A DNA stretch of 64,000 bases from an uncultured virus (IMG/VR IMGVR_UViG_641228477_000003) (Duplodnaviria; Heunggongvirae; Uroviricota; Caudoviricetes): IMG/VR virus record IMGVR_UViG_641228477_000003, positions 1 to 64,000 of that record; one strand, written 5' to 3'. The notes under the pieces were generated by a model. That model was not told the DNA's origin. It saw only the letters and a program-made list of their open reading frames with translations, and made no database searches. Below, piece after piece: positions 27,234-56,792 of the stretch. The translations under genes were made by a program, and so were the position numbers. The stretch's first letter is position 1. Each line of letters begins with the position of its first letter.

Positions 27234-27305
27234 TTTATAATGGCTATAGTTATTTATGGTTCTAGTTAGTGAGTGGTTGAGCCATGATAGGTAGACCGCT
27301 CATGG
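27234..27305 (-). repeat. Copy 1 of 72-73 bp inverted repeat (origin/recombination-site candidate)
   Basis: Reverse complement of 27257-27305 equals 56720-56768 (49/49). Confidence 0.95.
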
Positions 27306-27653
27306 ATGTAGTTCTGTCGAGAACCTAAACGCAACATTCGGATTAATCAAGTACCTTGTATTCGAGAATTGATTTCCTTCATGTCGCCCCTTGATCGCTG
27401 TTACTAACTTCTCACCCTGCCATTCGACTTCGCATAATCGCCTGATGCGTATGCCAGCCGTTTCCCTACGTACACCCATCGCTCTAGCCAGCTGTGATTG
27501 CGAAGGATAGCAATAGCCGTCCCTGTCCATATATGTAGCCAGTGCGCTATACGTTTGCCAAAGTTCCGAGCCTAAGTACGCCATGAGTCCATTACGGACA
27601 CCTGCGAACATCTTGATAAATACCTCGCCTTGCTGTACGCCACCGTTCTGCAT
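27300..27653 (-). CDS. Winged-HTH replication-initiator-like protein (HTH_36 type)
   Basis: YSALATYMDRDGYCYPSQSQLARAMGVRRETA...NTRY. Confidence 0.8.
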   Translation of the reverse strand: MQNGGVQQGEVFIKMFAGVRNGLMAYLGSELWQTYSALATYMDRDGYCYPSQSQLARAMGVRRETAGIRIRRLCEVEWQGEKLVTAIKGRHEGNQFSNTRYLINPNVAFRFSTELHP

Positions 27654-27749
27654 ACACATCACTCCTTTACGTACATAAGGACATGAAGACGCAAAAAAAG
27701 ACGCTACCCGATTGGGTAACGCCTAATAATCATGCATCATATTAAGTTA

Positions 27750-28019
27750 CTATAGTTCGAATTCTTCTATATCGTCATTGCTTGACTTCGGAGGTTTCGT
27801 TTCAGTTCCCTGCTCACGATTTCCTTGCGAGAACAGCCCTGTCTCGATACTCGAAATCATGTTATCGATTGCCGTTTGCTTTGCGTTCTCCATGCGTACA
27901 TATACTTTCATCGCTTCTATTACGTGATACTGCGTCGGCTTACCTTCGAGAAAGTCGTTAATCATCTTCTCATCGGGATTCGTCGTGTTACATTTGAATG
28001 AATGTTGTTTTACTGCCAT
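27750..28019 (-). CDS. ParR-like centromere-binding adaptor
   Basis: Small RHH-like N-terminus, acidic tail, directly after ParM. Confidence 0.65.
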   Translation of the reverse strand: MAVKQHSFKCNTTNPDEKMINDFLEGKPTQYHVIEAMKVYVRMENAKQTAIDNMISSIETGLFSQGNREQGTETKPPKSSNDDIEEFEL

Positions 28020-28030
28020 CTGTAACCCTC

Positions 28031-29065
28031 CTATTTCGCTACCGCTTTAGCATCTTGAATCATCGCATATTTAGTGTAGCCTTTAACGTTAGCTGTTTGC
28101 GCTCCCTGCTCTGCTTTCGTATTCACGCCTGTTAGATATGGCTTGATATACTTGTGAAGCGCTAGAAGGCTACCACCAGTGAATAACACTACATCGTAGT
28201 CTTTTAATACGTAGCCTAGATTGTCCACACGTTGCATAACGATACGTGCCGTATATTCTAGCGCTTGTTCCATAAGGTCTTTAATTTCGTACTCTTTACC
28301 GCCTATTTCGATAATAACTTTTGACAGGATTTCCTTGTCAGTAAATTCGTCCTTAACGTACTCTCGTTTAGCATTTCGCAATAATGTATCCATATGCAAG
28401 AGTGACACGATACCTCTAGCGCCACGTTTCGAAAGTTCATCTTTAATTATGCGATTGGCTTCCAGCATTCCGACTTGTACACCATCATATCGTACTATAC
28501 GCAATCCCTCAGCTTCACATACATCAGTTGTACCGAAGCCGATATCGATTACTAATTTACGTGCTGTACGTTCGCTCTCCATGTCTTTACGTACTTTCAG
28601 GTTGTAATCATAGATGCGGTTAACAACAGAGCCTATCGGTTGCATTGGCGTATAAACTCGTAAGATACTGAATGTCTTTGTTTTACCGTCAATTTGTACC
28701 GTATGTTCCCCAACTAGATTGCGTTTAACCTTTTCGTGATTATCGCCGTTCTTGTAGTCTTCGCTAGGAAGTCCAGTTCCGACTACTATCTCGCTACCGT
28801 CTTTCACTAATTGCGAGATTGCTAGAATCGTTTCTGTTCGATATCCAGCGCTAGAGTATCGGTCATCATTTCTTGCGCTACTGCTTATGCCCTGCGCTTC
28901 GCCGATGACATAGCGTATGCCCTCGTATGTATAAACCGTAAGCCCTGTCGTATCCTCAAATGATTCTACTCGTCTTAAAGTATTCAGATAGCACAACTCT
29001 TCGTTCGCTGACGCAACCTTCACGAAAGAATTCGCTGACTCTACGCCGATATAATCTACAGTCAT
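28031..29065 (-). CDS. parM: ParM/StbA/Alp actin-like segregation ATPase
   Basis: GVESANSFVK, GTGLP, MQPIG, VIDIGFGTTD, FTGG, ANVKGY. Confidence 0.92.
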   Translation of the reverse strand: MTVDYIGVESANSFVKVASANEELCYLNTLRRVESFEDTTGLTVYTYEGIRYVIGEAQGISSSARNDDRYSSAGYRTETILAISQLVKDGSEIVVGTGLPSEDYKNGDNHEKVKRNLVGEHTVQIDGKTKTFSILRVYTPMQPIGSVVNRIYDYNLKVRKDMESERTARKLVIDIGFGTTDVCEAEGLRIVRYDGVQVGMLEANRIIKDELSKRGARGIVSLLHMDTLLRNAKREYVKDEFTDKEILSKVIIEIGGKEYEIKDLMEQALEYTARIVMQRVDNLGYVLKDYDVVLFTGGSLLALHKYIKPYLTGVNTKAEQGAQTANVKGYTKYAMIQDAKAVAK

Positions 29066-29074
29066 GTGTAGTCC

Positions 29075-29205
29075 TCCTAGTATTTGAATTCACTTTTAAG
29101 TATTTGAGTATATTATACTACACTTGTCTGATAGAATTCAATAGGGTTTTTGTATAAATTTATACAATTCACTACACATATCTATAGTTTTGTATTCGTA
29201 TGTAT
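29075..29205 (-). promoter_or_regulatory. par promoter and candidate centromere (parC)
   Basis: TTGAAT-N18-TATAAT (29141-29112); perfect palindrome TTGTATAAATTTATACAA 29150-29167; short repeats AGTATTTGA, AATTCACT, ACTACAC. Confidence 0.55.
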
Positions 29206-29209
29206 TAAA

Positions 29210-30190
29210 TTACCACGGTAGGTCGTCGTTATTGAAGGTAGATTCCCCGAAATCTAGTTCACTAAGACTAACGTGTCTAGCGCCCTCAATGCGAGTATTC
29301 ACGAATCTTTCAGCAATCGGATTATTAAGCCAGTCGAATTCCTTCTCTACGTCAATTTCAGAAACCTGTTCATGCGTATGATAGTCGTTAAACATGTTTA
29401 AAGCCGTCTTGTAGATGTACCCACATAGTTCGTCTTCGCTACCATCTTTCTTGTTCCTGATAGATTGCGTGATTCTATCGCCTAGTTCTCTCGCAAAAGT
29501 AGAGTCGTGCTTACAACGGTCTTGTAGTTTCCATGCGGAATCCGAAGCTAGTCCACTATTCTTGTAGGCGCTCACTAGTCTTTTAGTCAGTTTGTTACCT
29601 AAAGACGAATCTATTAAAGCGTAAGCATGTCGAAGAACCTCGGGAGTATCCGCAAAAAGTTGCTCCTGCTCTATTTCTATATCTTTAACTAGTTTAGTAT
29701 TATTATTCTTTTCGAAGTCTTTTAAGGATTTATTAAGGGTTTTAGGAAGAGATTGAGAAAGAGATTCTTTTTCTGATTTCGGCTCATCGACCTTACTCTC
29801 CGTAGGATTCACGATGATTTCGCAGTCTGCAAAACGCTCTGCAAGACCGTCTGCAATACGGCATGCAATAACATAAACGTTAGCGCCTGAACCACCGCTC
29901 TTTTTACGTAGAGTTTCGTACTTATCCACAAGCCCTAAGTCTACTAATTTCTTCGTTGCGTAATTAATAGTACGAAGTGATTTACCAACACCTTCGGCAA
30001 TAGTCGGTACTTTTAGGTACGCCACGCCTACGGCTTTTAACGCATGTTGAGCGATAAAGTCTAGTACGGCAATTTGTGTTTTATTAAGTTCATGCGAATA
30101 ATGTTTCTTAGCGATCTCTAGAGCGAAATCCATTTCTTCAGTAGTTTCAAATAAAGATAAGCTATCATATTGATTCATGTAGTTTTTCAT
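29210..30190 (-). CDS. Plasmid-type replication initiator (wHTH)
   Basis: VAYLKVPTIAEGVGKSLRTINYATKKLVDLGLV...GANVY; internal iterons; adjacent to par. Confidence 0.8.
   Translation of the reverse strand: MKNYMNQYDSLSLFETTEEMDFALEIAKKHYSHELNKTQIAVLDFIAQHALKAVGVAYLKVPTIAEGVGKSLRTINYATKKLVDLGLVDKYETLRKKSGGSGANVYVIACRIADGLAERFADCEIIVNPTESKVDEPKSEKESLSQSLPKTLNKSLKDFEKNNNTKLVKDIEIEQEQLFADTPEVLRHAYALIDSSLGNKLTKRLVSAYKNSGLASDSAWKLQDRCKHDSTFARELGDRITQSIRNKKDGSEDELCGYIYKTALNMFNDYHTHEQVSEIDVEKEFDWLNNPIAERFVNTRIEGARHVSLSELDFGESTFNNDDLPW
29826..29873. repeat. Four 12-bp iterons inside rep (plasmid origin candidate)
   Basis: TCTGCAAAACGC TCTGCAAGACCG TCTGCAATACGG CATGCAATAACA beside an AT-rich tract. 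Confidence 0.75.
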
Positions 30191-30262
30191 TGTGGTAAAT
30201 CCTTCCGAGAAAAGAACACAAATAACCGTTGATTCATTCGAGGGAATATCGTATAATGAGGG

Positions 30263-30466
30263 TAGTGATTTCTCATATAAGATATGCATAAAGGTATTTA
30301 TGTAATTTCTCTTTATAATTTTTTAGCGTCATTTTCCGATGACGTCTGTTTTACCGCCATTTTCCGATGGCGTTGTTACATTGTCGTTGCGCTTTGTCGA
30401 GCGCATATTGTCGATTATAACTTTCGTTCTGACCGTTGGTGACTGCAATCACTAGCGGTCTTTTTC
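30263..30466 (+). ncRNA. Putative antisense (counter-transcript) RNA to the rep leader
   Basis: TTGATT-N17-TATAAT at 30229-30257; terminator hairpin 30431-30460 + T-run. Confidence 0.65.
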
Positions 30467-30498
30467 TGTTTTTTTGTCGAAAACAACTTACGAGTACT

Positions 30499-30527
30499 AT
30501 ATTACGCTGACTTGCGAATCGTGTCAA
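30499..30527 (-). promoter_or_regulatory. sigmaA promoter of rep
   Basis: TTGACA-N17-TAATAT; two TTGCAGACCG iteron-like boxes at 30535-30557. Confidence 0.75.
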
Positions 30528-30586
30528 CACTTTTTTGCAGACCGAAATTGCAGACCGTAAAAAGACAAAAAGAAAGAGCGCCATAA

Positions 30587-30781
30587 TCAGCGCCCTTCGT
30601 AATAATTCTGCAATCCTTTTGACATGTATCGTCTGTCTTTGTGTGACCTCGTCATAGTAGTAGATGCTACAGAATCATCGTTCTTTAGCTTTATCGTTAA
30701 CAGCACACCCCCGAGAAGTCCTGCAATCCCTGCGAATGCTGTTCCGAATAGAATTCCACCTGCAAATGAAATTGGTAACAT
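30587..30781 (-). CDS. Small single-TM protein
   Basis: Gly-rich TM; own TTGACA promoter with operator at 30874-30890. Confidence 0.6.
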   Translation of the reverse strand: MLPISFAGGILFGTAFAGIAGLLGGVLLTIKLKNDDSVASTTMTRSHKDRRYMSKGLQNYYEGR

Positions 30782-31029
30782 TGTCGATTCCTTCTTTCGT
30801 ATTATATTTAATTTTGTGTTACATTCGTGTTGTTAATTACATACTAAATTAATATGAATCGCATGTCAACGCTTTTCGCAAATTGCGTAATAATTTCACG
30901 TACCCTAATATAAGTAAAAAGACGCAGACACCTGAATCAAAGTCGAAGTGTCCACGCCTGTCAGCAGTATTGTCGTAGTTTGGGAGATAGATGTTTCATG
31001 AGACTTACGAGAATTAACAGTGCCAGCCG

Positions 31030-31302
31030 TTAACCTCGTTCGATATCTTCTAACACATGGAACGTAATTTCTTCGTTAGGGGCATCGCTGAAGCCCTTTC
31101 CGACTGATGCGTTATTGATTACGCCCATTGCGATTAATCCTGTTAATCCCCAGTCCGCTAGAGTTACGATAGAATCCGCAACTTCCTGCGTCGGAATGTA
31201 TCCGTAGGCTAGACCTTGTTTAACCAAGAACGCTACTAACGCAAGTAACGTCCCTCGGTTCATAAGGCGCAATCCGAGTTTACGGAATTGCATATTCTTC
31301 AT
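31030..31302 (-). CDS. Holin
   Basis: Two TMs, RLMNRGTLLAL...GVINN; lysis cassette; MKNM start. Confidence 0.8.
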   Translation of the reverse strand: MKNMQFRKLGLRLMNRGTLLALVAFLVKQGLAYGYIPTQEVADSIVTLADWGLTGLIAMGVINNASVGKGFSDAPNEEITFHVLEDIERG

Positions 31303-31559
31303 TACGCAACAACCTCCCAATCTTCCGCTAGACAATCGCCTACGGACGGAACCCACGTACTTATAGTTCCTGAAACCGTCTTAATAGCGAAATACGGATT
31401 ATAGTGCGCTACTTCTCCAAACTCTTTCTTCGCAACTTCCGTCACTGTCGGATACGAGTTGGCTGGGACGTAGTAAACAAACATCCCTTTGCCATTCCAC
31501 CCCTTTCTCGCAACCTTCTTCATTTGCTTTAATGCTTCGATAGCTTTTCCGAAATCCAT
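31302..31559 (-). CDS. DUF2829 / Tad2-like anti-Thoeris sponge
   Basis: MDFGKAIEALKQMKKVARKGWNGKGMFV...WVPSVGDCLAEDW. Confidence 0.85.
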   Translation of the reverse strand: MDFGKAIEALKQMKKVARKGWNGKGMFVYYVPANSYPTVTEVAKKEFGEVAHYNPYFAIKTVSGTISTWVPSVGDCLAEDWEVVA

Positions 31560-31577
31560 ATGATCGCTTCCTCTCTA

Positions 31578-32576: not shown

Positions 32577-32644
32577 GTAATCGACCTCCTAGTTTTAGTG
32601 GGCTTGACAACGCCCTTACATTATGATAAGGGCGTGAGCCGTCG

Positions 32645-32992: not shown

Positions 32993-33064
32993 CGTCAGCA
33001 CCTCCTTTCGCAAGTAGCGTAATTTTCAGAAAAGAAAAGAGCGGTTATATACCGCCCTCTCTCG

Positions 33065-33283: not shown

Positions 33284-33290
33284 CTGTGTA

Positions 33291-33872: not shown

Positions 33873-36800
33873 TTAACCGACGCCGAACGTCTTGATTACT
33901 TGCCAGCCATTACCTACGAACAGATACAGCCCCATACCTGCGCCACCTGCTCCATACCATAGCGCTCCGTTCTCGTTTGAAACGATTCTGTTAGGGCTAT
34001 TAAATACGAAGTGAGGTGCTTTTATGGTAGCCTGTCCATTGGCGATGATATCAGCGTCCCATGTACGAATCATCTTCGATGTATCAATACCTGCACCTGC
34101 CGAGTTTCCGCCTTGGATGTTTATGCCTTGCTGTGGCAGGAGCGGTGCATGTACTCTCATTTGCGAGTTTACCATTACTTCAGCAGTATGCTCGTAACCT
34201 AGATGCAGATTTCCGTCAGCGGCAGATAGTGTTACATTGTTGTTTCCGTGGTCTACCAGTATGCCCTTGTCCTTGTGTCCTCGCAGATATTTGAATCGCA
34301 TGTTCATCGCATCTAATGTGTCGCTAACTGTTACATTATCCGACTGTAATCTGCGATATTGCAGTCTAGCTAACGCAGATTTCCATAGACTGTCTTCCGC
34401 TTCATAGGGAGATGCCTTCGAGCCTGATACGACCTGAACGCCGTCAACCACGCACCAGTTTGCATTAGTTGTCACTATGTTAATGCGAAGCGCTCTACGT
34501 GTGTACTGCGATAGATTTGCGTGGGCTGTTACAGTGACTCCATATCGTACGACATCGCCAATGTTAGCGTTAGGTACTGGGAAGTCCTTCGTTTCTGAAT
34601 GGATAACAACACCGTTAACATCCGTTCCATTAAATCCTACATGCTGAACCATTAATCTAGGCGCACCTGCGCCAAGTCCTCCGAATGGCTTACCAGCGTG
34701 TAGAGATATCGTGTACTGTTTATTCGGACTTACGGTTACATCTTGGAACACATAGTTCGCATTGTTAACAAGTAAGGCTTTCATGCCGAATGGGACTGCT
34801 TCAGGTTGCGCCGAACCACCGTAATATGTAGCGATTCTTGGCGTACCTCTTTTCGCCCACTGATATGACTTGTCATTGTCGTTAATGGTTTTAGTATCTA
34901 CTGGATTGTAAATACCGCCTATAACGCCACCACTCACATTTGCGTTAATCAGTTCGAAGGAATGGTCATGGACTAGATTCGTAGCCGAGACTGCACTAGA
35001 TAGCAAACCAGTCTTCGCATCTTTAATTAAGAAATCAGCATCAGTTACTGTTACGCCAGCCTTTCCGATAGTCACACGACCGTTACTGATTTCAACGTTG
35101 TCAGCATTTATTGTACCTGATGCGATGTTCTGCGCCTTCAGATTGATAATGTTCGTATTGGTAGCGTTGATAGTTCCGCCAGTAATGCGGTCAGCTGACA
35201 TCGTACCACCAGTGATAACTCCAGCACTTAGATTCTTTACAGTTACTTTTGACGCATCGAGTACGCCTGTTTGAATCATCGAAGCACTAATCGCATTCGT
35301 GGCGATCTTGTCCGCCGTGATTGCACCAGCGACAATCTTCGAAGCGTTAATCGAGTTCACTGCAATCTTATCGGCTGTAACTGCATTCGCCTGAATCTTT
35401 GAAGCATCGATAGCATTCGCAGATAACTTCGAAGCGTTGATAGCACCAGCGACAATCTTGTCCGCTGTAACTGCATTCGTAGCAATCTTGTCGGCAATTA
35501 CCGAGCCAGCGACGATTTTATCGGATGTTATCGAATTCGTAGCAATCTTCGAAGCGTTAACTGTACCTGCGCCGATTCTATCTGCATGTAACGTACCAGC
35601 CGTGATGTTTCCAGCGTTCATATTCGTAACAGCAATCTTCGAAGCATCAATCGTACCTGAAACGATATTCCCTGCCTTCAGATTGATGATATTCGTATTC
35701 GTTGCGTTGATTGTACCGCCATTGATTCGGTCAGCGGTCATCGTACCTGACGTGATGTTATTCGCCTTCAGATTCGTTACGTTGACCTTATTCGCATCTA
35801 ACGTACCAGCTACGATTCGTTCAGCGACAATCGTTCCGCTATCTACTGCACTAATTGATGGTGAATGCCATAGGATGGATGCATCCTTATTCTTCACTTT
35901 CGGATAGTATCCACTATAGAAACGAACACGCAGGTACTTAGTTGCTGGATGCATTCTGTAGGACGCCTGAATATTACGACCTTGTGGCGCTTCGTTTCCA
36001 CCTGCTTGCGAGGATAATACGTAACCGTCCATAAACAGCCATCTCCCTACCTCTCCCTCTCCGCTCCAAAAATACGGATTAGTTCTAGGGTCGCCTGATA
36101 GTGCGCCATTAATTGGATTTAACGGCTGTACAGGAAGTTCCTTTTGATTCTTATCGTATGCATTTAATCCGAAGTACTGCGCCCCTTGCATTTCATTCTT
36201 CTCAACAAACATGCCGATACTTGCCTTGTATGTTTGGTTCGGGTCTACTTCGAAGTACTCGGAATTATATAACGTAGGTTGTTCGTGTTCTGCCGTTGTG
36301 AATCCGTGGACAAGAACGTCACCCATATTCGAAGAACCTCGCATCATTACCGTGGATGTAGCGTGTTTACTAACTCCCCATCCTGTTGAGTCGTTTCCTG
36401 TGAGTGTAGGGTTTGCGATAAGACTTTTCGCAAGTACATGCAACTTTTCCGTAGTGATCGCTCCTGCTAGAATCTTCTCGGCGGTTACTGCATTCGCCTG
36501 TAACTTCGAAGCATTAATCGAATTCGCCTGTAGTTTATCTGTAGTTACTGCGCCAGCTTGAATCTTGTCGGCTATAACTGCATTCGACGCAATCTTATCG
36601 GCTACGATCGCATTTGCTACGATTTTAGATGCGTTCACAGCGTTCGCTGATATCTTGTCGGTAGTTACTGCGTTAACTGCAATCTTATCCGCCACAATCG
36701 CATTAGCTACGATCTTGGATGCATTAACGGAATTAGCCACCAGCTTATCAGTAGTTACTGCGTTAGTCGCAATCTTTTCGGCGGTAATCGTATTCGCTCC

Positions 36801-39800
36801 GATTCGGTCGGCGTGAATAGTACCCACCTTGATATTACCTGCGTTCAGGTTATCTACGTTGACCTTAGTCGCATCGATACGACCTGTTACGATTGAGTCA
36901 CCAGTAAGAATCGAACCGCCCTGCGTTGCCATTACTTCGAAGTTAGCGATATTAACTGCCGTCTGACTCGGTTGTGGCTCTCTTATTGTTAGCCTAACAT
37001 ATTGAACTTGGCGACCTCCGAACGTATAACTTAACGGTACTGCTGTATTGTTAGTGACGTCCGCTACGACTTCCCACGTCGTATTGTTCATTGATGTTTC
37101 TATCTTGAAACTCTTCGGCGTGTATCGTGCATCGGTCGTATAGTACGTAGTAAATCCGATACGAACCACTTCTCCGACGATGTTGCCTAAGTTTACTGTA
37201 GCCGTCGCTGGGAACTGTTTTACCATCCAACGAGGTACTGCGGTGTTATCCGCCCCTGTCATTCCGTTGGCTATTAGGTCGCCACTACTGTATGTAGTCG
37301 GCGCATTACCTGCTACATTGCGAAGACGTCCGCCGAACTCTAAATGGTCAGCGCTAATCGAGCCAACCTTCAAGCGAGATGCATCTAGCGTACCAACCGT
37401 GATGTTTCCTGCATCGATATCGACTATCTTCGCGCTATTACCGCTTATTGTTACACCATGCAGTCGTTGAGCTGCTAACGTACCTTGCGTGATATTGCTC
37501 GCATTTTTGGCGAAGTCTTCTACTTCCTTCTTAACGTCATTCGCTCGATTCGTTGCGTTGGTTTGCGCTTCCTTCGCCTTGTCTTCCGCATGCTTCTTGA
37601 TGTCTGCGAATTCTTTATCGATTTCTTCTAGTGGCTGGTCATACTCAGTAAACTTCGTACCGATGCCGACTTTGTATTCGTACATGTCAATTGTACCGTT
37701 CGTGAAGTCCCTAGCCAGTGAGTAGAATGACAATTCCTTAATCGGCTTATCATCTATCTTTGTAGCTGCTTGAATTAGCTGTCGAGTGTACTGCACATTT
37801 GGTTTGATAATCGTTTCGAATCTAGCCGACCTGTACATTTCCGTACCGTCTGTGAATGTTATCTTTAATTCAGCGCCAACCCATGGACTCGTAGTTCCTA
37901 TCGATGCGATCTTACCGTCCATTCTAAGAGAGATTACGATACTCTGACCTCGAAGCTGTTCTTTAGCGGTAGGTGTGAAACCGAAGTACGTATGTGGCTT
38001 ATTCTCGTTATTTACTACGACATGATGCTTGCCCTTCGTACCTATAAGTAAGTTACGACCAGCATTAGACATCTCGTTAATCTTATTCGTTAATTCACTA
38101 CGAACCTTGGCATCTTCCTCTTTCGCCTTTTTGTCGGCTTCTGTAATGGCTTGAGTCTTCGCATCTTCAGCTAACTTCTTCGCATCTTCAGTTGCAAGTC
38201 GCTTCGCTTCGTCCGCCAGTTTCTTCGCTTCTGCTTCCGCTTGAGTCTTCGCATCCCCTGCCAGCTTCTTCGCATCTTCGGTCGCTAGGCGTTTCGCCTC
38301 ATCTGCTAACTTCTTCGCTTCTGCTTCGGCTAGGCGTTGGGCTTCACTAGATAACTTCGTAGCTTCGTCCTTCGCATTCTTCTCGGCTAATTGTCGAGCC
38401 TTCTCCGCTTCTGCTTTCGCATCCTTTAACGCTTGGTCTACCGCATTACTTTGTGCAGTATCCGCCTTATCTTGTGAATCCTGCTTGAGCGCTTCTTCGA
38501 CAGTCTTCGTTACTTCGTTCGTGTGATTGTTCGCATTCGTTTCGGCTTCTTTGGCGATTCGCTCGGCTTCGCTCTTGATTGCTAAATCGAGATTCTTCGC
38601 TTCTTCAATCGCACTCGTACGAGCCTTTTCCGCTTCTGCTTTTGCTTCTTTAATAGCGTCCTCTCTAGCTTTATCAGCTTTCTCGATTACGTCGTTGAGG
38701 TCAGGCGCTCCAATATCCGCTGGTACTTGTGGCGAAGTTGGAATCCATTCCTTTCCGTCATACTTCTTCAATATATATGGCTTCTTGGTCGTATCCATCC
38801 ATAGCTTCGTCGTATCGGCTGGCGGTTTAATATCAACATGCATCGATTTTTCTGAATAGCTTTCCGTGAATAGCTTTGCGTTGTCTTCAGCATCCTTCGC
38901 AACCTTATTCGCATGCTCTTGTAACTCCGCTTCGACTTCAGGAATTAAGCCGTCAACATAGCTTTTCGTTTCAATGATAGTCTCTTCGACTACCTCGATG
39001 ACTTTCTCATTCGTGTAGTTGTTTGCTTCCGAGATCGCTTCTTCCTTCTTTTGCGTGGCATCTTTCTCCGCAGTTTCAATCGCTTGCTTCTCGGCTTCTT
39101 TCGCTTTTTCTTGCGCGCCACTCGGTGTCTCCGCTCCGATATCGCTTGCTTCTGTTGCTGTCGCTTTTACCCACACTTCATTCTCCGCATCCCAACGTTT
39201 CATGATGTTAGGTTCTCGGCTCGTATCCAGCCATAGCATATCAGGCTCTCGTTTCGATTTGATTGGCGGTGTCTTGGATTTGTATACCGTTTCGCCTTTT
39301 GATTCCCACTTCGACATATTCGAATTGATTTGGTCTTGAATCGCTTCGATTTGTTTATTCGGCTCGATGATTACTGGAACGAACTCGCCCAGTACCACAG
39401 CATCTTGCGAAGGGTCTGTGTAGGAACGCTTGATTTGAATTACTCGTGCATCTACTGCAAGGTACGGAACAAACATCGTATCCTTAACAAGAACGTAATC
39501 ACCAAGTCGAACGGCTTCGTGTTTCCATTTCGCCAGTCTTTCCAGTAAGACCACTTGTGTTTCGTAGGTCATTCGAGGTTTGTTGCGCTTCTTGATTTCC
39601 TCTACGCCAGCTTTCATTAGTGCGTATACGTCTTCGATGCTACTGAACTCAACACGACCGAAGATGTGCTTTCCTGCGACGCCGAATTGCTGTAACGCAT
39701 CATTATCGCCTATCCAGTTCTGGTCTTTTGGTGAAACCCATCCGTCGAACTGACCGTCATGTCCTGCGAGGGTCAGGCGCTTCCCTGATTCGTCAGCCTT

Positions 39801-40463
39801 TCCGACTGGTACGATTGCAGTACACATATCGCTTCTATCCTCTTCACGAGATACGCCGATAAGGTCTTTGTTATAGGTGAACCGTTTGCCTGTGCGCCTT
39901 CCTCGCTTCTTGACAAGATGGACTAACTGCGATATTATCCGCTGACCATTCCAGTGAATCGTGAACTCTAATTCCAAACCGAATACTTCACGAATCTTGT
40001 GTAGTCCTGCGAGTCCTGTCGGAAACTCATTTAAGTCTACGTCATTTAGTCCAGTGTAATCAGCGACACCGATTTCCCAGCCAGTACCTTGTAATACATA
40101 GACGCCAGCTTGTTTCGCACTTACACCGACTAACTTCGTTCCAGTAACGACATGTCCAATGAGATCGCCTACTGCTGAATTCTCTGCGAATATTCTACGG
40201 ACATATTGACCTTCCGAATTACGTGACTCATGTGTACGCAGAATAGTGAACTTCATTAATCGTTTGTCAAGGTCACGTACAAGTACGCTATTTCCTGCGA
40301 CAAGGGCTGATGTAGCTACGCTATTCGCTAGTACTTCGAATTCGTACGTTAAGACACCGTCAAGGGATTCAAAATGACTGTCCTTGAAGTATTGCGGTGC
40401 TTTCGGACTTGAATTCGTTAGAATCGTTTTCTGCTTGTTATATTGGTCTACTACGATAATCAT
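33873..40463 (-). CDS. Large tail spike/central fibre (Tal-type N-terminus, repeats, carbohydrate-binding modules)
   Basis: Minor structural N-domain, LWLDTS repeats, 11-aa AEK repeats, 10-aa beta repeats, discoidin-like domain. Confidence 0.9.
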   Translation of the reverse strand: MIIVVDQYNKQKTILTNSSPKAPQYFKDSHFESLDGVLTYEFEVLANSVATSALVAGNSVLVRDLDKRLMKFTILRTHESRNSEGQYVRRIFAENSAVGDLIGHVVTGTKLVGVSAKQAGVYVLQGTGWEIGVADYTGLNDVDLNEFPTGLAGLHKIREVFGLELEFTIHWNGQRIISQLVHLVKKRGRRTGKRFTYNKDLIGVSREEDRSDMCTAIVPVGKADESGKRLTLAGHDGQFDGWVSPKDQNWIGDNDALQQFGVAGKHIFGRVEFSSIEDVYALMKAGVEEIKKRNKPRMTYETQVVLLERLAKWKHEAVRLGDYVLVKDTMFVPYLAVDARVIQIKRSYTDPSQDAVVLGEFVPVIIEPNKQIEAIQDQINSNMSKWESKGETVYKSKTPPIKSKREPDMLWLDTSREPNIMKRWDAENEVWVKATATEASDIGAETPSGAQEKAKEAEKQAIETAEKDATQKKEEAISEANNYTNEKVIEVVEETIIETKSYVDGLIPEVEAELQEHANKVAKDAEDNAKLFTESYSEKSMHVDIKPPADTTKLWMDTTKKPYILKKYDGKEWIPTSPQVPADIGAPDLNDVIEKADKAREDAIKEAKAEAEKARTSAIEEAKNLDLAIKSEAERIAKEAETNANNHTNEVTKTVEEALKQDSQDKADTAQSNAVDQALKDAKAEAEKARQLAEKNAKDEATKLSSEAQRLAEAEAKKLADEAKRLATEDAKKLAGDAKTQAEAEAKKLADEAKRLATEDAKKLAEDAKTQAITEADKKAKEEDAKVRSELTNKINEMSNAGRNLLIGTKGKHHVVVNNENKPHTYFGFTPTAKEQLRGQSIVISLRMDGKIASIGTTSPWVGAELKITFTDGTEMYRSARFETIIKPNVQYTRQLIQAATKIDDKPIKELSFYSLARDFTNGTIDMYEYKVGIGTKFTEYDQPLEEIDKEFADIKKHAEDKAKEAQTNATNRANDVKKEVEDFAKNASNITQGTLAAQRLHGVTISGNSAKIVDIDAGNITVGTLDASRLKVGSISADHLEFGGRLRNVAGNAPTTYSSGDLIANGMTGADNTAVPRWMVKQFPATATVNLGNIVGEVVRIGFTTYYTTDARYTPKSFKIETSMNNTTWEVVADVTNNTAVPLSYTFGGRQVQYVRLTIREPQPSQTAVNIANFEVMATQGGSILTGDSIVTGRIDATKVNVDNLNAGNIKVGTIHADRIGANTITAEKIATNAVTTDKLVANSVNASKIVANAIVADKIAVNAVTTDKISANAVNASKIVANAIVADKIASNAVIADKIQAGAVTTDKLQANSINASKLQANAVTAEKILAGAITTEKLHVLAKSLIANPTLTGNDSTGWGVSKHATSTVMMRGSSNMGDVLVHGFTTAEHEQPTLYNSEYFEVDPNQTYKASIGMFVEKNEMQGAQYFGLNAYDKNQKELPVQPLNPINGALSGDPRTNPYFWSGEGEVGRWLFMDGYVLSSQAGGNEAPQGRNIQASYRMHPATKYLRVRFYSGYYPKVKNKDASILWHSPSISAVDSGTIVAERIVAGTLDANKVNVTNLKANNITSGTMTADRINGGTINATNTNIINLKAGNIVSGTIDASKIAVTNMNAGNITAGTLHADRIGAGTVNASKIATNSITSDKIVAGSVIADKIATNAVTADKIVAGAINASKLSANAIDASKIQANAVTADKIAVNSINASKIVAGAITADKIATNAISASMIQTGVLDASKVTVKNLSAGVITGGTMSADRITGGTINATNTNIINLKAQNIASGTINADNVEISNGRVTIGKAGVTVTDADFLIKDAKTGLLSSAVSATNLVHDHSFELINANVSGGVIGGIYNPVDTKTINDNDKSYQWAKRGTPRIATYYGGSAQPEAVPFGMKALLVNNANYVFQDVTVSPNKQYTISLHAGKPFGGLGAGAPRLMVQHVGFNGTDVNGVVIHSETKDFPVPNANIGDVVRYGVTVTAHANLSQYTRRALRINIVTTNANWCVVDGVQVVSGSKASPYEAEDSLWKSALARLQYRRLQSDNVTVSDTLDAMNMRFKYLRGHKDKGILVDHGNNNVTLSAADGNLHLGYEHTAEVMVNSQMRVHAPLLPQQGINIQGGNSAGAGIDTSKMIRTWDADIIANGQATIKAPHFVFNSPNRIVSNENGALWYGAGGAGMGLYLFVGNGWQVIKTFGVG

Positions 40464-40547
40464 GGATATAATCCGCCCCTTTCTGTAGAATCCTCTACAT
40501 AAAAATAAGGACGCCAACGCCCCAATAAAGAGCGCTAACGTCCTCGT

Positions 40548-46108: not shown

Positions 46109-46217
46109 AAATATCCCTCCTTGTCAAGTTTGACAAACACACGAAAGTATGCTTGTACATACATAAGGGCATGAAGGCATAAAAAAAGAGACTAGAGCCG
46201 AAGCCCTAGCCTATTGT

Positions 46218-47168: not shown

Positions 47169-47169
47169 C

Positions 47170-47909: not shown

Positions 47910-47910
47910 G

Positions 47911-50303: not shown

Positions 50304-50457
50304 TGTTTCCTCCCACCGTTTAAAGACCGTCGTCATTTAGTTTCCGACTTGTTGCGATTCGCCAGTCGTCAGCGTAGTGTGTTCCGAAAAGGTTGTATTC
50401 CTCTTCGTACTATATCGGTGGCTAATGCCCTTTTATTTGCATACAAATGTAAACTTT

Positions 50458-51411: not shown

Positions 51412-53029
51412 CTACTTCTTCAGTTTCCTTTTCTTCGGGCTTCTCTTCTTCGACGTCCACCTGCGCTAGTGGGTCGAACTTATTGAAGTCTTCAGGTTGT
51501 GCCAGCTTATCAGCTTCGCCATCCTTCTCCATAGCTTCGATGATTGCTTCCGCTTGTGCATCGTCAAGACCATCCATATTCTTGATTGCTGTACGAACAT
51601 CAATCGTAGGACGACCGCCTGTACGAATCTGCATAACTTCAGCGAGTTCCTTCTCGTTAGCTGGTAAACCATCACGCCATCTAATCTTTGGATATACCGC
51701 AGTATAGTGAGTGAATCCGATTTCGTTTGCGGTATTCTCAAGTAATTGAGAGATGTACAGCGAATCACGGAATGCTCGGTCAATATTCGTTCTAATTCGT
51801 TTTACTTTCGACAAGATCGGCATGAACCTCGCCTTGATTGCTGAACCGTCGGTATGTGACGTACCAGTTCCGCCAGCGTTTCCGATTGTAGTTCCGAATA
51901 ACCACTGTGGCGTTTCAGATACTTGGAAGACTAAGTTAATCAGCGTTTCTAACTGCTTGAATGCATCCGCTAACTTACCATCCCACGTCATGTATGATGG
52001 TGCGACTTCTTCCTTACGCATAGGGATGTATCGACCGCCCCATGTCATTTCGACTTGTTGTAAATCGGGTCCATATGCCGTAGGGTCGCTATGTTTCAAT
52101 AGAATGTAATCGATTTGCGTTAGACGATCATTAATGGCATAGATAAGCGATTCAATCTTTTCAGTAGACGAAATCCCATTCCAGTGCGTGTCCGTTGCTT
52201 TGTACGGAATGTGGCGAATTAGATTCATAGGAACGCCAGTCTCTACTACATCGTGGTCACGGTCTGTCGCTACTTCCTCTAAGATTTCGTATTGCTTTTG
52301 TGTAACTTTATATTCCGTGATGATTTGTGGTAATGGATTCAACTTGAATCTACGATATTGAATGAATCCTGCGAGGTGGCGTTCGACATTTAGATACGGA
52401 TGTTCTTCGCCATTCAATTCCATAACCCATTCGATTTGAGCGATATTGACCGCTTTGAACTTCTTCTTGCTTCCTCGTGCCAATTCAGGGAATACAGTCG
52501 AAGGGTCTTGTGATTCGATAATCGCTTCCATCTCGACACCTTTCGGAACGAACGGTAATTCGCTGAAGTCCTCACGGTAAGAGAAATACGTTTTGATGAA
52601 TGCATCGCCACGGATACCAGCACCTACGACCAGTTCTTGTCCAAGCGCTGACATATCGTTTTCCTCTACTATAGAAGAAAGACGTAATTGCTCAGTGGAA
52701 TCCGCATTCATTCCACTTTCAAACGATGGGTCTTCGCTGAACATTAAATCCGCTGGTTTATGAATGATAATATCTGTTAGGTTAACTGCGAGATACAACG
52801 ATTGAAGACGTTTGACGTGCGGTGTATCCTTCAATAGTTCCTGCGCTCGCTTCGGTAAGTCTCTGAAGTTACCTTCGTATAATTTGCGACCACGTTCGTA
52901 TTTTGCTAGACGTTCTAAATCGTCAGTTGGTGGGAACAGCTTCCCTTTTTCGAATAACGTATCGGATGGTCTGTACTCGTATTCGATACTGTCGTCGTGC
53001 TTTTCTCTTCTTAGTAGTTTGTTGAACAT
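51404..53029 (-). CDS. Portal protein (SPP1-like)
   Basis: 541 aa, position, IRWRDGLP, acidic tail. Confidence 0.88.
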   Translation of the reverse strand: MFNKLLRREKHDDSIEYEYRPSDTLFEKGKLFPPTDDLERLAKYERGRKLYEGNFRDLPKRAQELLKDTPHVKRLQSLYLAVNLTDIIIHKPADLMFSEDPSFESGMNADSTEQLRLSSIVEENDMSALGQELVVGAGIRGDAFIKTYFSYREDFSELPFVPKGVEMEAIIESQDPSTVFPELARGSKKKFKAVNIAQIEWVMELNGEEHPYLNVERHLAGFIQYRRFKLNPLPQIITEYKVTQKQYEILEEVATDRDHDVVETGVPMNLIRHIPYKATDTHWNGISSTEKIESLIYAINDRLTQIDYILLKHSDPTAYGPDLQQVEMTWGGRYIPMRKEEVAPSYMTWDGKLADAFKQLETLINLVFQVSETPQWLFGTTIGNAGGTGTSHTDGSAIKARFMPILSKVKRIRTNIDRAFRDSLYISQLLENTANEIGFTHYTAVYPKIRWRDGLPANEKELAEVMQIRTGGRPTIDVRTAIKNMDGLDDAQAEAIIEAMEKDGEADKLAQPEDFNKFDPLAQVDVEEEKPEEKETEEVDE

Positions 53030-53077
53030 CGAATCCCTCCTAGTATATAAAAGAAAAAGAGCGCTGAATGAGCGCCC

Positions 53078-53629
53078 TTAGATTACCTCACCTTTGTAGT
53101 AAACCTTCTCTAGTTCGTTGATGCGAACGTCGAAGTTATATGCTTCTAGTGCTTCACGAGATTCTAGGAATGCGTGACAAGACTCAGTTAGCATGATGTT
53201 CTTCGGTAAGTCCGTTTTGTCATCGAATAAGATAACAGGACGTTGAATTACGCTTGCGGCCCCTAGTTCCCAGTTCGTACCACTGTCAGTCGAGTGAACT
53301 GCGACAACGATATCACATGTTAGGATTTCTTTAACGTCGTTATTGTACGTGGCTTTTCGCCATTCAACCGAACCGAATTCGAATTGTGGATTTTGATGCT
53401 CACGTGGTGAGAATACTTGCAACCCTTTCGCTCGTAACGTCTTTTCGACGAATTCTACTCGTTCGATTTCTTCGTCATTGAAGAATGGGGATGCGAGGTA
53501 GACTTTCATTGGCTTTTTCGGTAATGGAAGTACTGTGCGAGTTACATGAGTCGTAACGATCTTGTCTGCTTCGATACTTCCTACATTGATTGCCTTTGCT
53601 TTGATAGTTCCTGTTGTGATTTTACCCAT
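53078..53629 (-). CDS. Nucleoside 2-deoxyribosyltransferase-family protein
   Basis: VYLASPFF, SP, D...CDIVVA, DSGTNWELG, NIML. Confidence 0.9.
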   Translation of the reverse strand: MGKITTGTIKAKAINVGSIEADKIVTTHVTRTVLPLPKKPMKVYLASPFFNDEEIERVEFVEKTLRAKGLQVFSPREHQNPQFEFGSVEWRKATYNNDVKEILTCDIVVAVHSTDSGTNWELGAASVIQRPVILFDDKTDLPKNIMLTESCHAFLESREALEAYNFDVRINELEKVYYKGEVI

Positions 53630-53709
53630 TGGTAAATACCTCCTAGTGTTTGTTTAATTGACCTATCCGTCCTACACTTTCATAAGGGCAGGACAGAATT
53701 TGAAAAGGT

Positions 53710-55470
53710 CTATAACCACAAAGGCTTGTCTCTCATTACTGCACGAGGTCGAGCGACATATTCGACGGACATTTGCAACGCATCGACTGAATCGACGTAA
53801 TCCCCGAATGGATATGCGTCCATCTGCTCTAGCAACGTCTTGTGGTGACGGTTGAATAGAAGAGTTTTGTTGACGCAATACGGTTCGAGAGATTCGATAC
53901 GCTGTTCCTTCGAAGACTTCTGTGCTTTGACGTCAATTACTTTCGTAGAATATAAGTGATGACGTGGTAGTTCTTCTTGTAGCTGACGATAGAATTCATG
54001 CTGTGCGTTGATAGTCTCAACGATTAGTAGATTCGGTCGGTAAGAAGAAACACGTTGAATAATACCTTGCATGAATTTATGTGGTGGCTCTTTGGTAGCG
54101 TATTCGTCCAGCACAAAAATACGCCCAGTTGCTTCATGGCGTCCAGTTGTAACTAACGCATTGTAGCAGGAGCGAGCGCTTTTACCCATTGCTATATCCC
54201 ATGCCGAACTGATAGACATATCGGCAAGGTCATATCTCTCGCCTTCATATACGCAGTAGCGTTCGTCGGTAAGGGGGTCGTGCTGAATCGTGTAATATCC
54301 GAACTGATCGGTGAAGAAGTACTTCTCATCTTCCGAGAATGCTCGGTTTCGATACTCGGAATTGAAGGTCTTCGTTCCCATATTCGCTTTACGCTCCATT
54401 AACGCCTTATAAGTCCAGCGCCATTCCCATGCGGTTTCTACGCCGTCCATCATAGCAACTTCGTTTTTATCGTAGAATGCTTCGTGTTCTTCACCATCTC
54501 CATGCAGATATAAATCGGTATATTCTTCCCACATTTGCGGATGATTCGGTTCACTTACAATCGCATCATAGAAACAGTGTTTGAAGTCACGGCGATTCAG
54601 AACGTGCGCCAATAGCCCAGTGGACGATACCATCGTGCCGACTAGGATTTGATTTGTGGTTTTAGAGCCGATTGGCATTACTACGGCGTTAAACCAGTTA
54701 ATTAACTTTTCACGTGCTTCTTTCGTTCCTTCGTTATTCGCTGATGATGGGTCATCGGTAATAACTGTAGTCGGACGTAATGCGCCATGACGCTTACCAC
54801 GTAATTGCTTCCCTGACGATGATGCTTCGACAAGCTGGTTCTCTCTCGTAATGAAAGAACTCTCGTTATCTTTCTCATTCGCCATTGGATTATCGTATAA
54901 GAGACATCCGAAGTCTTCTATTAACTTGCGATTATACTTTAATTGCTTATTACACCAGCTGACTAACTTCTTCGAAAGGTCGTCCGTTTCCGATATAATC
55001 AGAATGTATCTGTGCGATAATTGGCGGAATAATATGCCTTTTAGCGCATATGCATTCGAGAATATACCTGATTTCGAGTGACCACGAGGGGCTGCGATGC
55101 CTAAGTTCACGCCCTTACCTGCATCTACTTCGTCACATAATCCGAAGAATTCTTTATGTATTCCTGCCATTTCTTCAAGTGGTTGATGCTGTTCGCCGTC
55201 GTCTTGATTCTGAATGATGTTGTCTTCGTTATCAGGATTATGACCATCACTAAGATATTCCATCGTAAAGTATGCGTTATCCACTTCCGCACGATGTATG
55301 CGCTCTAAGCGAATTAATTCTTCCTTACTATTTAGTAATATTTCAATATGGTAGTCCGACGCATCACCTTGCTTATGTAGTTGCATAAGCGTGGCAAGGC
55401 GCTCTTTTACGAGCGCAATGCGTTCGGCACGTTCTTCACGATTGATAAACCGTTCGCCATTCCATGCCAT
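53710..55470 (-). CDS. terL: Terminase large subunit
   Basis: APRGHSKS, LRG.R, ITDD, VGT, AWDIAMG, KEQRI, YVDSVDA. Confidence 0.93.
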   Translation of the reverse strand: MAWNGERFINREERAERIALVKERLATLMQLHKQGDASDYHIEILLNSKEELIRLERIHRAEVDNAYFTMEYLSDGHNPDNEDNIIQNQDDGEQHQPLEEMAGIHKEFFGLCDEVDAGKGVNLGIAAPRGHSKSGIFSNAYALKGILFRQLSHRYILIISETDDLSKKLVSWCNKQLKYNRKLIEDFGCLLYDNPMANEKDNESSFITRENQLVEASSSGKQLRGKRHGALRPTTVITDDPSSANNEGTKEAREKLINWFNAVVMPIGSKTTNQILVGTMVSSTGLLAHVLNRRDFKHCFYDAIVSEPNHPQMWEEYTDLYLHGDGEEHEAFYDKNEVAMMDGVETAWEWRWTYKALMERKANMGTKTFNSEYRNRAFSEDEKYFFTDQFGYYTIQHDPLTDERYCVYEGERYDLADMSISSAWDIAMGKSARSCYNALVTTGRHEATGRIFVLDEYATKEPPHKFMQGIIQRVSSYRPNLLIVETINAQHEFYRQLQEELPRHHLYSTKVIDVKAQKSSKEQRIESLEPYCVNKTLLFNRHHKTLLEQMDAYPFGDYVDSVDALQMSVEYVARPRAVMRDKPLWL

Positions 55471-55481
55471 GCTTATTCCTC

Positions 55482-55904
55482 CTATTTCTTTAATAGTGCG
55501 TTGATTTCTGCGATTTCTTTCTCAAGATCGCTATTTGACTTCACGCCGTCAGCCGTATTGTCTTCGATGACTTTCTTATCAGTAAGCAAGCCGTGTCTAC
55601 GTAAGAACAGGTCGATACCTTTGATTGACGGTTGCGAACCGCTAATCGTACGCAGTAATTGACGATATACAAAATCACGCTTTTCCGATAAAAACTCGTC
55701 AGCGATCATATTCTTGTAATCGATGAATGATTTGTTTTGCGTTCTCCATTTGTATAGGCACATGCGAGTGACGCCTAATTCTTGCGCAATCTCTTCCTGT
55801 GTCTTACGTTCTCCCTCGATGTTGAGTTCGTTCTCTACCAGTAATAGAGCAGCTTCACGTTGTTTTAAGTTCAAGCGAGATTCTAATTCCTTCTTACTAG
55901 CCAT
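55482..55904 (-). CDS. terS: HTH protein, probable terminase small subunit
   Basis: TQEEIAQELGVTRMCLYKWR; directly upstream of terL. Confidence 0.75.
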   Translation of the reverse strand: MASKKELESRLNLKQREAALLLVENELNIEGERKTQEEIAQELGVTRMCLYKWRTQNKSFIDYKNMIADEFLSEKRDFVYRQLLRTISGSQPSIKGIDLFLRRHGLLTDKKVIEDNTADGVKSNSDLEKEIAEINALLKK

Positions 55905-56016
55905 GCGTATCTCTCCTTTCGGTATAATAAAAAAGTGTTGCGATTCCGTACGTTCTCATTTATACTGAATGTAACACAAACAGAAAAGAGATACATATGG
56001 AAGGTGGCAACACAAA

Positions 56017-56565
56017 ATGAATGAAGTTCAGCCAATTAGACTGAAGAAAGATATAAATAAAATGAAACGTGCCTTGCACGGTCGTGATAGATTGATGTTT
56101 GTTTTGGGAATTAATTTAGGTCTTCGTATTTCCGATTTATTACAATTGAAGGTTTCTGATTTTTATGGTGAGAATAACCGCTTCCTAAAACATGCGGTAG
56201 TTACCGAAGAGAAGACGGATAAGAATCGTAAGATGGCGATATCTGACGCAGTCAAGCGTGAAATCAAAGAAGCAGGATTCACGCAATATAGCGAAGAATA
56301 TCTATTTCCATCACGCAAAGGCGATAAGCCTATCGGACGTGTGCAAGCATACCGCATCCTAAATGCAGGGGCGGAACGTGCAGGTATTACCGAAATCGGG
56401 ACGCATACATTGCGTAAGACATTCGGATATCACGCATATAAGGCAGGTTCATCGATTCAAACGATTCAAAAACTACTGAATCATTCTAGCGAGAAGGATA
56501 CGATTAAATACATCGGTATCAATCAAGATAATCTCGACGAAGTACATTTGACACTTTCGTTGTAA
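56017..56565 (+). CDS. Short tyrosine recombinase (catalytic domain only)
   Basis: GLRISD, EKT, HTLRK, LNH, KYIG; promoter TTGCGA-N17-TATACT 55938-55966. Confidence 0.92.
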   Translation: MNEVQPIRLKKDINKMKRALHGRDRLMFVLGINLGLRISDLLQLKVSDFYGENNRFLKHAVVTEEKTDKNRKMAISDAVKREIKEAGFTQYSEEYLFPSRKGDKPIGRVQAYRILNAGAERAGITEIGTHTLRKTFGYHAYKAGSSIQTIQKLLNHSSEKDTIKYIGINQDNLDEVHLTLSL

Positions 56566-56567
56566 TA

Positions 56568-56604
56568 GAAAAAGCGCTACCCGACGTGGGTGGCGCTCTT
56601 TTTG
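56568..56604. terminator. Bidirectional terminator
   Basis: AAAAAGCGCTACCC-GACGT-GGGTGGCGCTCTTTTT. Confidence 0.8.
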
Positions 56605-56719
56605 CGTTTATTTCTCTTCATTCTATATACACGCCTGTATGCGATAGTTTTGTATACATTGTGTAAACTATTTAACGCAGATATAGATTCACGGCTTATC
56701 TGTCGGGGCATATACTGAC

Positions 56720-56792
56720 CCATGAGCGGTCTACCTATCATGGCTCAACCACTCACTAACTAGAACCAAAGAATAACTATAGCCAATATAAA
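56720..56792 (+). repeat. Copy 2 of the inverted repeat
   Basis: CCATGAGCGGTCTACCTATCATGGCTCAACCACTCACTAACTAGAACCA... Confidence 0.95.

Follow-up and report, generated by a model that had tools for sequence, protein, structure and literature searches.

The window analyzed here is a 64,000-nucleotide stretch of DNA that makes up 64,000 of the 64,977 bases of the virus record IMGVR_UViG_641228477_000003, which is rated complete by CheckV. A 2-kb query taken from the window was 100% identical to the plasmid record NC_010182.1 of Bacillus mycoides KBAB4, and the window genome is referred to as KBAB4 in the comparisons below. Our subject is a pair of perfect 49-bp inverted repeats lying 29 kb apart, one at the end of a small helix-turn-helix (HTH) gene and the other behind a tyrosine recombinase gene. 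PHROG and Pfam annotation describes a siphovirus gene set, nearly all of it on the minus strand, which includes terS/terL, portal, capsid, tape measure, Dit, a tail protein of 2,214 amino acids and lysis genes, with the polymerase genes and then RuvC among the replication genes and a sigma factor gene in addition. In the same annotation of the window, no integrase was found besides the small tyrosine recombinase of 182 amino acids.

A repeat search of the window recovered the arms at 27257-27305 and 56720-56768 as 49 nt of 100% complementary sequence, 29,414 nt apart, which reproduces the coordinates and full complementarity reported in an initial annotation of this DNA. With up to three mismatches allowed, the 49-mer had exactly 2 matches in the window as compared to 0.00 expected from 100 shuffles; the repeat pair is real and not a product of chance. 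Similarity carries on past the arms, as that annotation had also noted, to approximately 27234 and 56795 (75 nt at 95%; 73 nt at 95.9% by self-BLAST). The internal dyads it described, CCATGA-N12-TCATGG and TGAGCGGT-N17-ACCACTCA, are present in the sequence together with the AT-rich tail, the stop codon of the HTH open reading frame (ORF; 27300-27662, minus strand) falls inside the first copy, and the second copy starts 154 nt past the end of the recombinase ORF (56017-56565, plus strand). The recombinase had been called intact, and it is matched by Pfam Phage_integrase over positions 10-169 of 172, with the catalytic residues read by eye from the translation only.

The 49-bp repeat is the core of a ~75-bp module, in which a dyad with a constant CAYGGCT box precedes two direct 11-bp iterons and a tail rich in AT. 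The module is read in the sense in which the second copy, designated copy R, lies on the plus strand; the first is designated copy H. Read in this way, the 5' arm TGAGCGGT is followed by a 17-nt interval ending in CAYGGCT, the complementary 3' arm ACCACTCA, a constant CACTAAC, the iterons and finally the AT-rich tail. The iterons, AACTAGAACCA and AACTATAGCCA, are direct repeats of 11 bp, 16-17 bp apart. The two copies and their immediate surroundings are arranged as follows.

27300..27662, minus strand: small winged-helix protein of 120 amino acids (Pfam HTH_36, E 1e-07; phrog_12720), with its stop codon in copy H
27234..27305, minus strand: module copy H, after the HTH_36 stop codon
27295-27302, minus strand: 5' arm TGAGCGGT of copy H
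27280-27286, minus strand: CATGGCT box of copy H
27270-27277, minus strand: 3' arm ACCACTCA of copy H
27257-27267, minus strand: iteron AACTAGAACCA of copy H
27241-27251, minus strand: iteron AACTATAGCCA of copy H, then the AT-rich tail
56017..56565, plus strand: small tyrosine recombinase of 182 amino acids, catalytic domain only (PF00589, E 2.4e-24, positions 10-169 of 172), divergent from terS
56573..56597, plus strand: hairpin resembling a terminator, after the recombinase gene and before copy R
56688..56716, plus strand: sigma-A-like promoter match TTCACG-17-TATACT (9/12), ending 4 nt before copy R
56720..56798, plus strand: module copy R, downstream of the recombinase
56723-56730, plus strand: 5' arm of copy R
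56739-56745, plus strand: CATGGCT box of copy R
56748-56755, plus strand: 3' arm of copy R
56758-56768 and 56775-56785, plus strand: iterons of copy R
56786-56798, plus strand: AT-rich tail of copy R
56799..58370, no strand: ~1.6 kb without a convincing ORF, adjoining copy R and ~69% conserved with the relative G001

The iteron pattern AACTA[GT]A[GA]CCA occurs four times in the genome, each time within one of the two module copies. Both iterons are identical between the copies while the spacer separating them differs (TAAAT vs AAGAAT), as does the sequence past the tail, and this is the pattern expected of selection on binding boxes rather than of a fresh duplication. An AT-only run of 12-16 bp follows the second iteron in copy R and in most relatives, and a hairpin with the motif ACGCAG[TC]A is found within 35-55 nt after each copy in all genomes compared. 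The octamer ACGCAGTA has 12 sites against 2.2 expected, including 27166-27173, 27207-27214 and 56829-56836; each copy is trailed, 35-55 nt downstream, by one or two of these octamers, and relatives have ACGCAG[TC]A at the matching place.

Copy H is, as judged from the sequences compared, ancient and tied to the HTH_36 gene. The module lies over the HTH_36 stop codon, or no more than ~15 nt past it, in every relative examined. Among close genomes this applies to KBAB4, L081, L087, L092, HM-311 p2, pBwiPL1-3, pl62 and G003, and among distant phages to Bacillus Mgbh1 and KLEB27-1 and Paenibacillus Tripp and Halcyone, in which the HTH protein is only 38-42% identical; phi18-2 has a weaker version of the module that consists of iterons only. 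Genes for the helicase loader, helicase and primase lie downstream in all module-bearing relatives examined. In the window, copy H separates a plasmid-maintenance block with the short HTH gene at its downstream side (27750..30289) from a replication block (21661..27155), with the following genes.

29210-30289, minus strand: long HTH_36 / O-like protein, upstream of the short HTH gene, in the plasmid-maintenance block
28031-29065, minus strand: actin-like ParM (ALP_N, E 1.9e-15), in the plasmid-maintenance block
27750-28019, minus strand: protein of 89 amino acids downstream of ParM, in the plasmid-maintenance block
26760-27155, minus strand: phrog_6154 protein, in the replication block downstream of copy H
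25984-26748, minus strand: DnaC-like loader, in the replication block
23380-24738, minus strand: DnaB-like helicase, in the replication block
21661-22698, minus strand: primase, in the replication block

The place of ParM and its partner in the window is taken by an integrase in integrating relatives, and the phage lives as a plasmid in soil Bacillus. A survey of putative plasmid prophages lists the B. weihenstephanensis plasmid, pBwiPL1-3 and B. thuringiensis p2 as 'Group 2' (PMC8026635). In the available part of that survey, these plasmids are given as untested and ~70% identical in DNA, with a Xer-like recombinase presumed to resolve dimers, and the term 'inverted repeat' appears nowhere in it (PMC8026635). 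The other two Group 2 plasmids are the relatives returned by the 2-kb window query. This agrees with the identity of the first, the B. weihenstephanensis plasmid, which we take to be the present record. No account of the repeat pair, the module or an origin in these plasmids was found in the paper library searched.

In 5/5 complete ParM-bearing genomes (KBAB4, HM-311 p2, pBwiPL1-3, pl62 and the metagenomic G003), the small recombinase is followed by a second, inverted copy, 28-32 kb away from copy H and bordering a 1.6-1.9-kb tract in which no genes are annotated. G001, G002 and L076 also have a copy at this place after the recombinase. G001 and G002 have both copies, on separate contigs; G002 was not counted as independent because both of its module cores are identical to those of pBwiPL1-3. 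The two copies of each complete genome compare as follows by self-BLAST.

KBAB4: 73 nt, 95.9%, perfect core of 49 bp
HM-311 p2: 61 nt, 92%
pl62: 57 nt, 91%
G003: 77 nt, 90%, perfect core of 41 bp
pBwiPL1-3: 65 nt, 89%

Given these identities, the perfect 49 bp of KBAB4 are the upper end of a conserved range and no oddity. When the integrase-bearing KLEB27-1 and Mgbh1 were searched whole by self-BLAST, one module copy was found in each, and KLEB-like and Mgbh1-like IMG/VR contigs likewise have one pattern match each. KLEB27-1 also encodes a homologue of the small recombinase, 50% identical, and its single module is not beside that gene. Going by these sequences, the second copy is present only in the plasmid-living lineage among the relatives examined.

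The initial annotation had taken a lack of the second copy in relatives, along with a lack of initiator binding, as a sign of a recent chance duplication or an assembly artefact, and all five complete plasmid genomes have both copies. Perfect identity over 49 bp could mean that one copy is recent, but both positions are conserved in relatives only ~70% identical in DNA, and an artefact is at odds with two other public runs, in which the 49-mer forms its own contig at ~2x the depth of its flanks (contigs at k=31, breaking at the 49-mer). A remnant of a phage attachment site (attP) was considered together with these explanations and rejected; the module stays unsplit in the integrated proviruses G004 and G005, so classed by IMG/VR, where it lies intact 1.6-2.4 kb inside the left end, and is therefore not attP. 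Duplication, artefact and attP remnant taken together are scarcely credible as an account of the pair. One of the runs, X4, contains a strain variant in which 185 nt at 25798-25984 are replaced by 212 other letters and 37 single bases differ in 24500-30500; the 49-mer is unchanged in it and still at double depth. Two RNA runs yielded 0 reads of the element.

Wider searches returned few further sites. An exact 37-mer pattern had no match in the viral contigs collection, exact and degenerate scans of genome contigs for the 49-mer had none, a scan of the same contigs led by the HTH protein had none, and megablast of the repeat against phages had none; the sole match of a distant blastn search with copy R was a 23-nt match at chance level. 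A metagenome scan for the repeat gave three loci, L075, L076 and L077, of which L076 duplicates the G001 type and L075 looks like chance. L077 (2862-3050) is a partial look-alike, with a dyad, CATGGCT and CACTAAC and then AATGTCC, without iterons and without an HTH_36 neighbor. It sits between a tRNA-Leu gene and a small ORF on an unrelated phage-like metagenome contig and was excluded from all counts.

Near-identical inverted sites, one of them 154 nt from a recombinase gene, call to mind site-specific inversion, and the initial annotation had offered, as one of its alternatives, a flip-flop site pair that inverts the 29-kb block, possibly as a Flp/FRT-like switch to amplification. In this model the recombinase (56017-56565) would flip the block, with its packaging, structural, lysis and par genes. 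Inverted repeats and a tyrosine recombinase likewise share one replicon in the yeast 2-micron Flp/FRT and FimB/FimE-fimS systems, the enzyme is about as small as FimB/FimE-type invertases, and exchange between the copies could account for the long perfect cores of KBAB4 (49 bp) and G003 (41 bp). However, the assembly comparisons give no support to a flip-flop or Flp-like pair. All five complete genomes (5/5) have the same isomer, in assemblies where rare or induction-dependent inversion would not show, and the junctions are parental in 8/8 cases on the HTH side and 8/8 on the recombinase side (0/16 inverted), near-duplicates leaving ~6 independent lineages per side. The module and the recombinase also occur apart: Mgbh1 has the module without an annotated small recombinase, and KLEB27-1 has the recombinase homologue with only one module, located elsewhere. 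The dyad arms are 17 bp apart, as opposed to the 6-8 bp of lox, FRT and dif cores, and unlike the Flp/FRT and Fim sites are unfit in spacing for a crossover core; an 11-7-11 reading matches at only 6-9 of 11 positions, the arm spacing ranges from 6 to ~30 bp in Tripp/Halcyone, Mgbh1 and KLEB27-1, and the copies are only 89-92% alike within pBwiPL1-3, pl62 and HM-311. We consider inversion of the block improbable. Lox-like sites were also searched for around the recombinase, and only short, unconvincing repeats were seen.

The dyad itself has changed between genomes in a manner that preserves its pairing. With 11 copies aligned, pairing is retained in 90.9% of cells of the outer dyad, and 3/8 pairs are changed on both sides; its covariation score is reached by 0/500 shuffles, and slid controls pair in no more than 52% of cells. 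The inner dyad, CCATGA/TCATGG, is weaker, with 1/6 pairs changed on both sides and 7/500 shuffles reaching the score. The dyad is, on this alignment, kept by compensatory changes. Such changes are also what a structured RNA would make if the dyad folded in the transcript. It could serve as an attenuator separating the HTH gene from the replication genes, as a put-like antiterminator, or as a small RNA started at the TATAAT/TATATT box of the opposite strand; boxes of this kind point into the dyad from that strand in KBAB4, L004 and L081. Yet no Rfam match was obtained at gathering score in the window, nor at E up to 1 in 56550-56950, the fold z-scores were only -1.3 to -2.7, and an RNA would leave the direct iterons and AT-rich tail without a role. 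The non-Watson-Crick positions favor opposite strands in different genomes, being G.T on one strand in the KBAB4 arm and G.T on the other in the inner dyad of L087/L092, which fits DNA symmetry better. Because these strands differ and the arm spacing varies, the dyad is read as a symmetry of the DNA (two half-sites or a cruciform) and not as an RNA helix, and we think it quite unlikely that a folded transcript explains the module.

Three types of 3' arm were distinguished, namely CCACTCA in KBAB4, ACGCACA in HM-311 and G003, and CGTCACA in pBwiPL1-3, pl62 and G001, and the two copies were of the same type in 6/6 genomes in which both are known. The predicted recognition helix of the HTH_36 protein reads RET.[NS]RR in 7/7 genomes with the common arm and is altered in 4/4 genomes with other arms (KBAB4 RETAGIR, HM-311 RETVNKR, L081 RETVSKR, G003 REAVNRR). 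Non-standard arms thereby accompany recognition-helix changes, with 11/11 genomes consistent, and this association of arm and helix is suggestive as a sequence correlation.

Taken together, these observations are best accommodated, in our estimate with a probability of roughly 0.45, by a pair of HTH_36 binding sites that would comprise an origin and a second origin-like site, in the manner of oriL/oriR of phage SPP1. The small winged-helix HTH_36 protein (27300-27662) would bind the module. Copy H, at the 3' end of the HTH_36 gene and ahead of the helicase-loader, helicase and primase genes, would be the most likely lytic replication origin, and copy R, beside the recombinase and packaging genes, may offer the same protein another place to bind, where it could act as a further origin, as a barrier to forks when protein-bound, or as a partner that throttles copy H by pairing with it. 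An origin-type site read by HTH_36 is proposed because iterons lie beside an AT-rich stretch, the module is linked to the 3' end of the HTH gene, it stands at the head of the replisome genes, and both copies appear to track one specificity. Binding by HTH_36, and any role in replication initiation, is what we infer from this arrangement. Since the second copy occurs only in relatives that live as plasmids, it is attractive to suppose that it holds back or switches the lytic origin during maintenance, which it could do through pairing of two bound modules or as a fork barrier. The initial annotation had offered two oppositely oriented origins as one of its alternatives; the anatomy, the linkage to replication genes and the shared arm variants speak for it, and the predicted origin role rests on comparison.

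Several points weigh against this assignment. The protein itself gives little guidance: it matches phrog_270, 'replication initiation protein', only weakly (E 4.7e-06), no PDB sequence match lies below E 0.07 (best E 0.075), and its predicted model, a generic winged helix with a mean pLDDT of 72, has no Foldseek match at E 0.001 or better, with weak rows that mix MarR-type regulators and plasmid Rep proteins. A form fusing the HTH to a C-terminal organiser was sought and not found, one longer homologue of 520 amino acids having been seen, and the actual initiator could be the longer HTH_36 / O-like protein (29210-30289). At 12-16 bp the AT-rich tail is short, and in KBAB4 it is weaker at copy H; GC skew has no origin signal, being dominated by the one-strand gene layout. 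No simple residue code links helix to arm, because HM-311 (K) and G003 (R) share one arm type, and the independent lineages are few, since HM-311, L081 and G003 look like one clade and pBwiPL1-3/G001 and Tripp/Halcyone are close pairs. Binding and initiation at the module are, at present, predictions from the sequence.

The generic fold and mixed weak rows mean that the HTH_36 protein offers no decisive clue, and a transcriptional role is therefore the main rival. Under this alternative, which we regard as unlikely but the most serious of those weighed here, HTH_36 is a transcription factor and the module an operator or promoter element rather than an origin, copy H controlling the replication operon and copy R transcription at the non-coding edge. 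The best weak structural rows are MarR-type regulators, and the arm-to-helix association fits any DNA-binding role. The hairpin and ACGCAG[TC]A motif near each copy, the phage-type promoter motif ATGTCCTTATGT 75 nt downstream of copy H, and the sigma-A-like match that ends 4 nt before copy R are all compatible with it. On the other hand, no plus-strand gene follows copy R for ~1.6 kb and no ATGTCCTTATGT motif lies downstream of it, promoter matches in the copy R region are not above chance (11 vs 11.4 expected), and iterons with an AT-rich tail at the 3' end of a gene, not upstream of one, are more typical of origins.

The closest known parallel to the proposed origin and origin-like site is SPP1. 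In the available text of the sources, gp38 (G38P) of that phage is described as binding oriL, within gene 38, and the non-coding oriR, each having repeats as well as a region rich in AT, and fork stalling at gp38-oriR is the proposed trigger of the switch from theta to sigma replication and concatemer synthesis (PMC6316719; PMC3485210). As far as these accounts extend, both cases present two distant origin-type sites in a Bacillus siphovirus, one at a gene preceding the helicase-loader and helicase genes and the other in non-coding DNA that lies amid or beside late genes, with repeats and an AT-rich part (PMC6316719). Unlike gp38, with which no sequence relation was found (Pfam gives HTH_36 only), the protein here would read a site that follows its gene instead of lying inside it, that has a dyad besides direct repeats, and whose copies are inverted. 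A further difference from SPP1 is the restriction of the second copy, as far as seen, to the lineage living as plasmids, with binding and firing predicted.

An initiator gene followed by iterons and an AT-rich region is also the arrangement of staphylococcal pathogenicity islands (SaPI; rep-ori) and of lambda O / ori-lambda, each with a single origin. The module resembles these in that the replication genes are headed by a winged-helix protein gene with iterons and an AT-rich region linked to it in cis; the 120-amino-acid protein lacks a recognisable helicase-recruiting domain, and the likeness is one of layout. In phage P1, handcuffing involves incC and incA, iteron sets that both flank repA within ~2 kb as arrays of 19-bp iterons. 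Here too, a phage-plasmid has putative initiator-binding repeats at two loci, and initiation could be limited if these paired; the restriction of the second copy to plasmid-living relatives would be explained by pairing of the P1 kind. The copies in the present case differ from those of P1 in being 29 kb apart and in each constituting a full dyad-plus-iteron module.

A variant in which the inverted pair acts as a switch of lytic replication mode, either because the recombinase flips one replication fork between the copies, with Futcher-type double rolling-circle amplification of the yeast 2-micron kind, or because HTH-bound copy R stalls the fork and sets off the passage from theta to concatemer-forming replication, appears rather improbable to us. 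If it were true, the second copy would let a plasmid-living phage pass from low-copy maintenance to packaging-ready concatemers.

The stretch beside copy R (56799-58370) probably holds packaging ends and/or plasmid cis sites. A gap of similar size is found at the same place in 3/3 annotated plasmid relatives. In the window, the stretch contains repeats of the TAGGACTTC type (57127-57215), a block rich in G (57240-57300), AAACGTTGA.TTAA boxes as a pair (57404 and 57477) and an ACATTTA array (58030-58240). On the other side of the recombinase gene, the start codons of terS and the recombinase are separated by 72 bp, and a 14-bp inverted repeat (55901-55914 and 55987-56000, 86% complementary) flanks this interval, with one arm spanning the terS ribosome site and ATG. 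Relatives of the small recombinase were seen in 270 phage records, all at <60% identity.

With respect to the other replication proteins, the long HTH_36 protein is common to integrating relatives (32% identity, E 3e-17, with KLEB27-1 gp30), and no paralogy was detectable between the short and long HTH_36 proteins of the window. A split initiator, in which the short HTH protein and phrog_6154 would be halves of an O/G38P-like protein, was considered and rejected, as no fused form was seen and phrog_6154 homologues stand alone. DNA polymerase appears as two ORFs, 16454-18238 and 13472-14551, split by an ORF of 523 amino acids (14766-16337), and a separate 3'-5' exonuclease ORF lies at 12101-12916. 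The gene for the 2,214-amino-acid tail protein (33873-40517) contains 30-nt-periodic repeats at 35.1-37.4 kb and 45/90-nt repeats at 38.1-38.7 kb.

Two families of promoter-like sequences were noted elsewhere in the window. The motif ATGTCCTTATGT occurs 21 times with up to two mismatches as compared to 6.0 expected, mostly on the minus strand (sites there include 4278-4289, 5922-5933, 27154-27165, 27673-27684 and 46161-46172), and most copies sit between a terminator hairpin and a ribosome-binding site, close behind the former and close ahead of the latter. The phage's own sigma factor (gene at 3151-3537) probably has this motif as its promoter class; a similar AATGTCCCGAT repeat family and two sigma genes are found in KLEB27-1. 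One sigma-A-type promoter/operator is present in three copies (1567-1597, 6575-6619 and 58356-58400), which adjoin plus-strand HTH regulator genes (6695-7081 and 21087-21611) or, at 58.4 kb, the plus-strand unit. An 11/12 match, TTGACA-18-TATACT with TG, is read in the copy at 58371-58400, and the three sites look like an early or lysis-lysogeny control set.

To our knowledge, the replication origins and copy control of ParM-type plasmid prophages in the Bacillus cereus group have been mapped by nobody. On the sequence comparisons, the module pair can be provisionally classed as an initiator-linked origin type with a second, distant copy. A cis-acting module common to a wide set of Bacillus and Paenibacillus siphoviruses is hereby defined and its likely reader protein, a predicted one, is named. 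All plasmid-living relatives examined have the inverted second copy, and the integrating relatives searched whole lack it. The natural arm variants, together with the variant recognition helices, amount to a ready-made specificity-swap experiment. The pair offers a handle on how a phage-plasmid separates low-copy maintenance from lytic replication, and on whether an SPP1-like arrangement of two sites is general.

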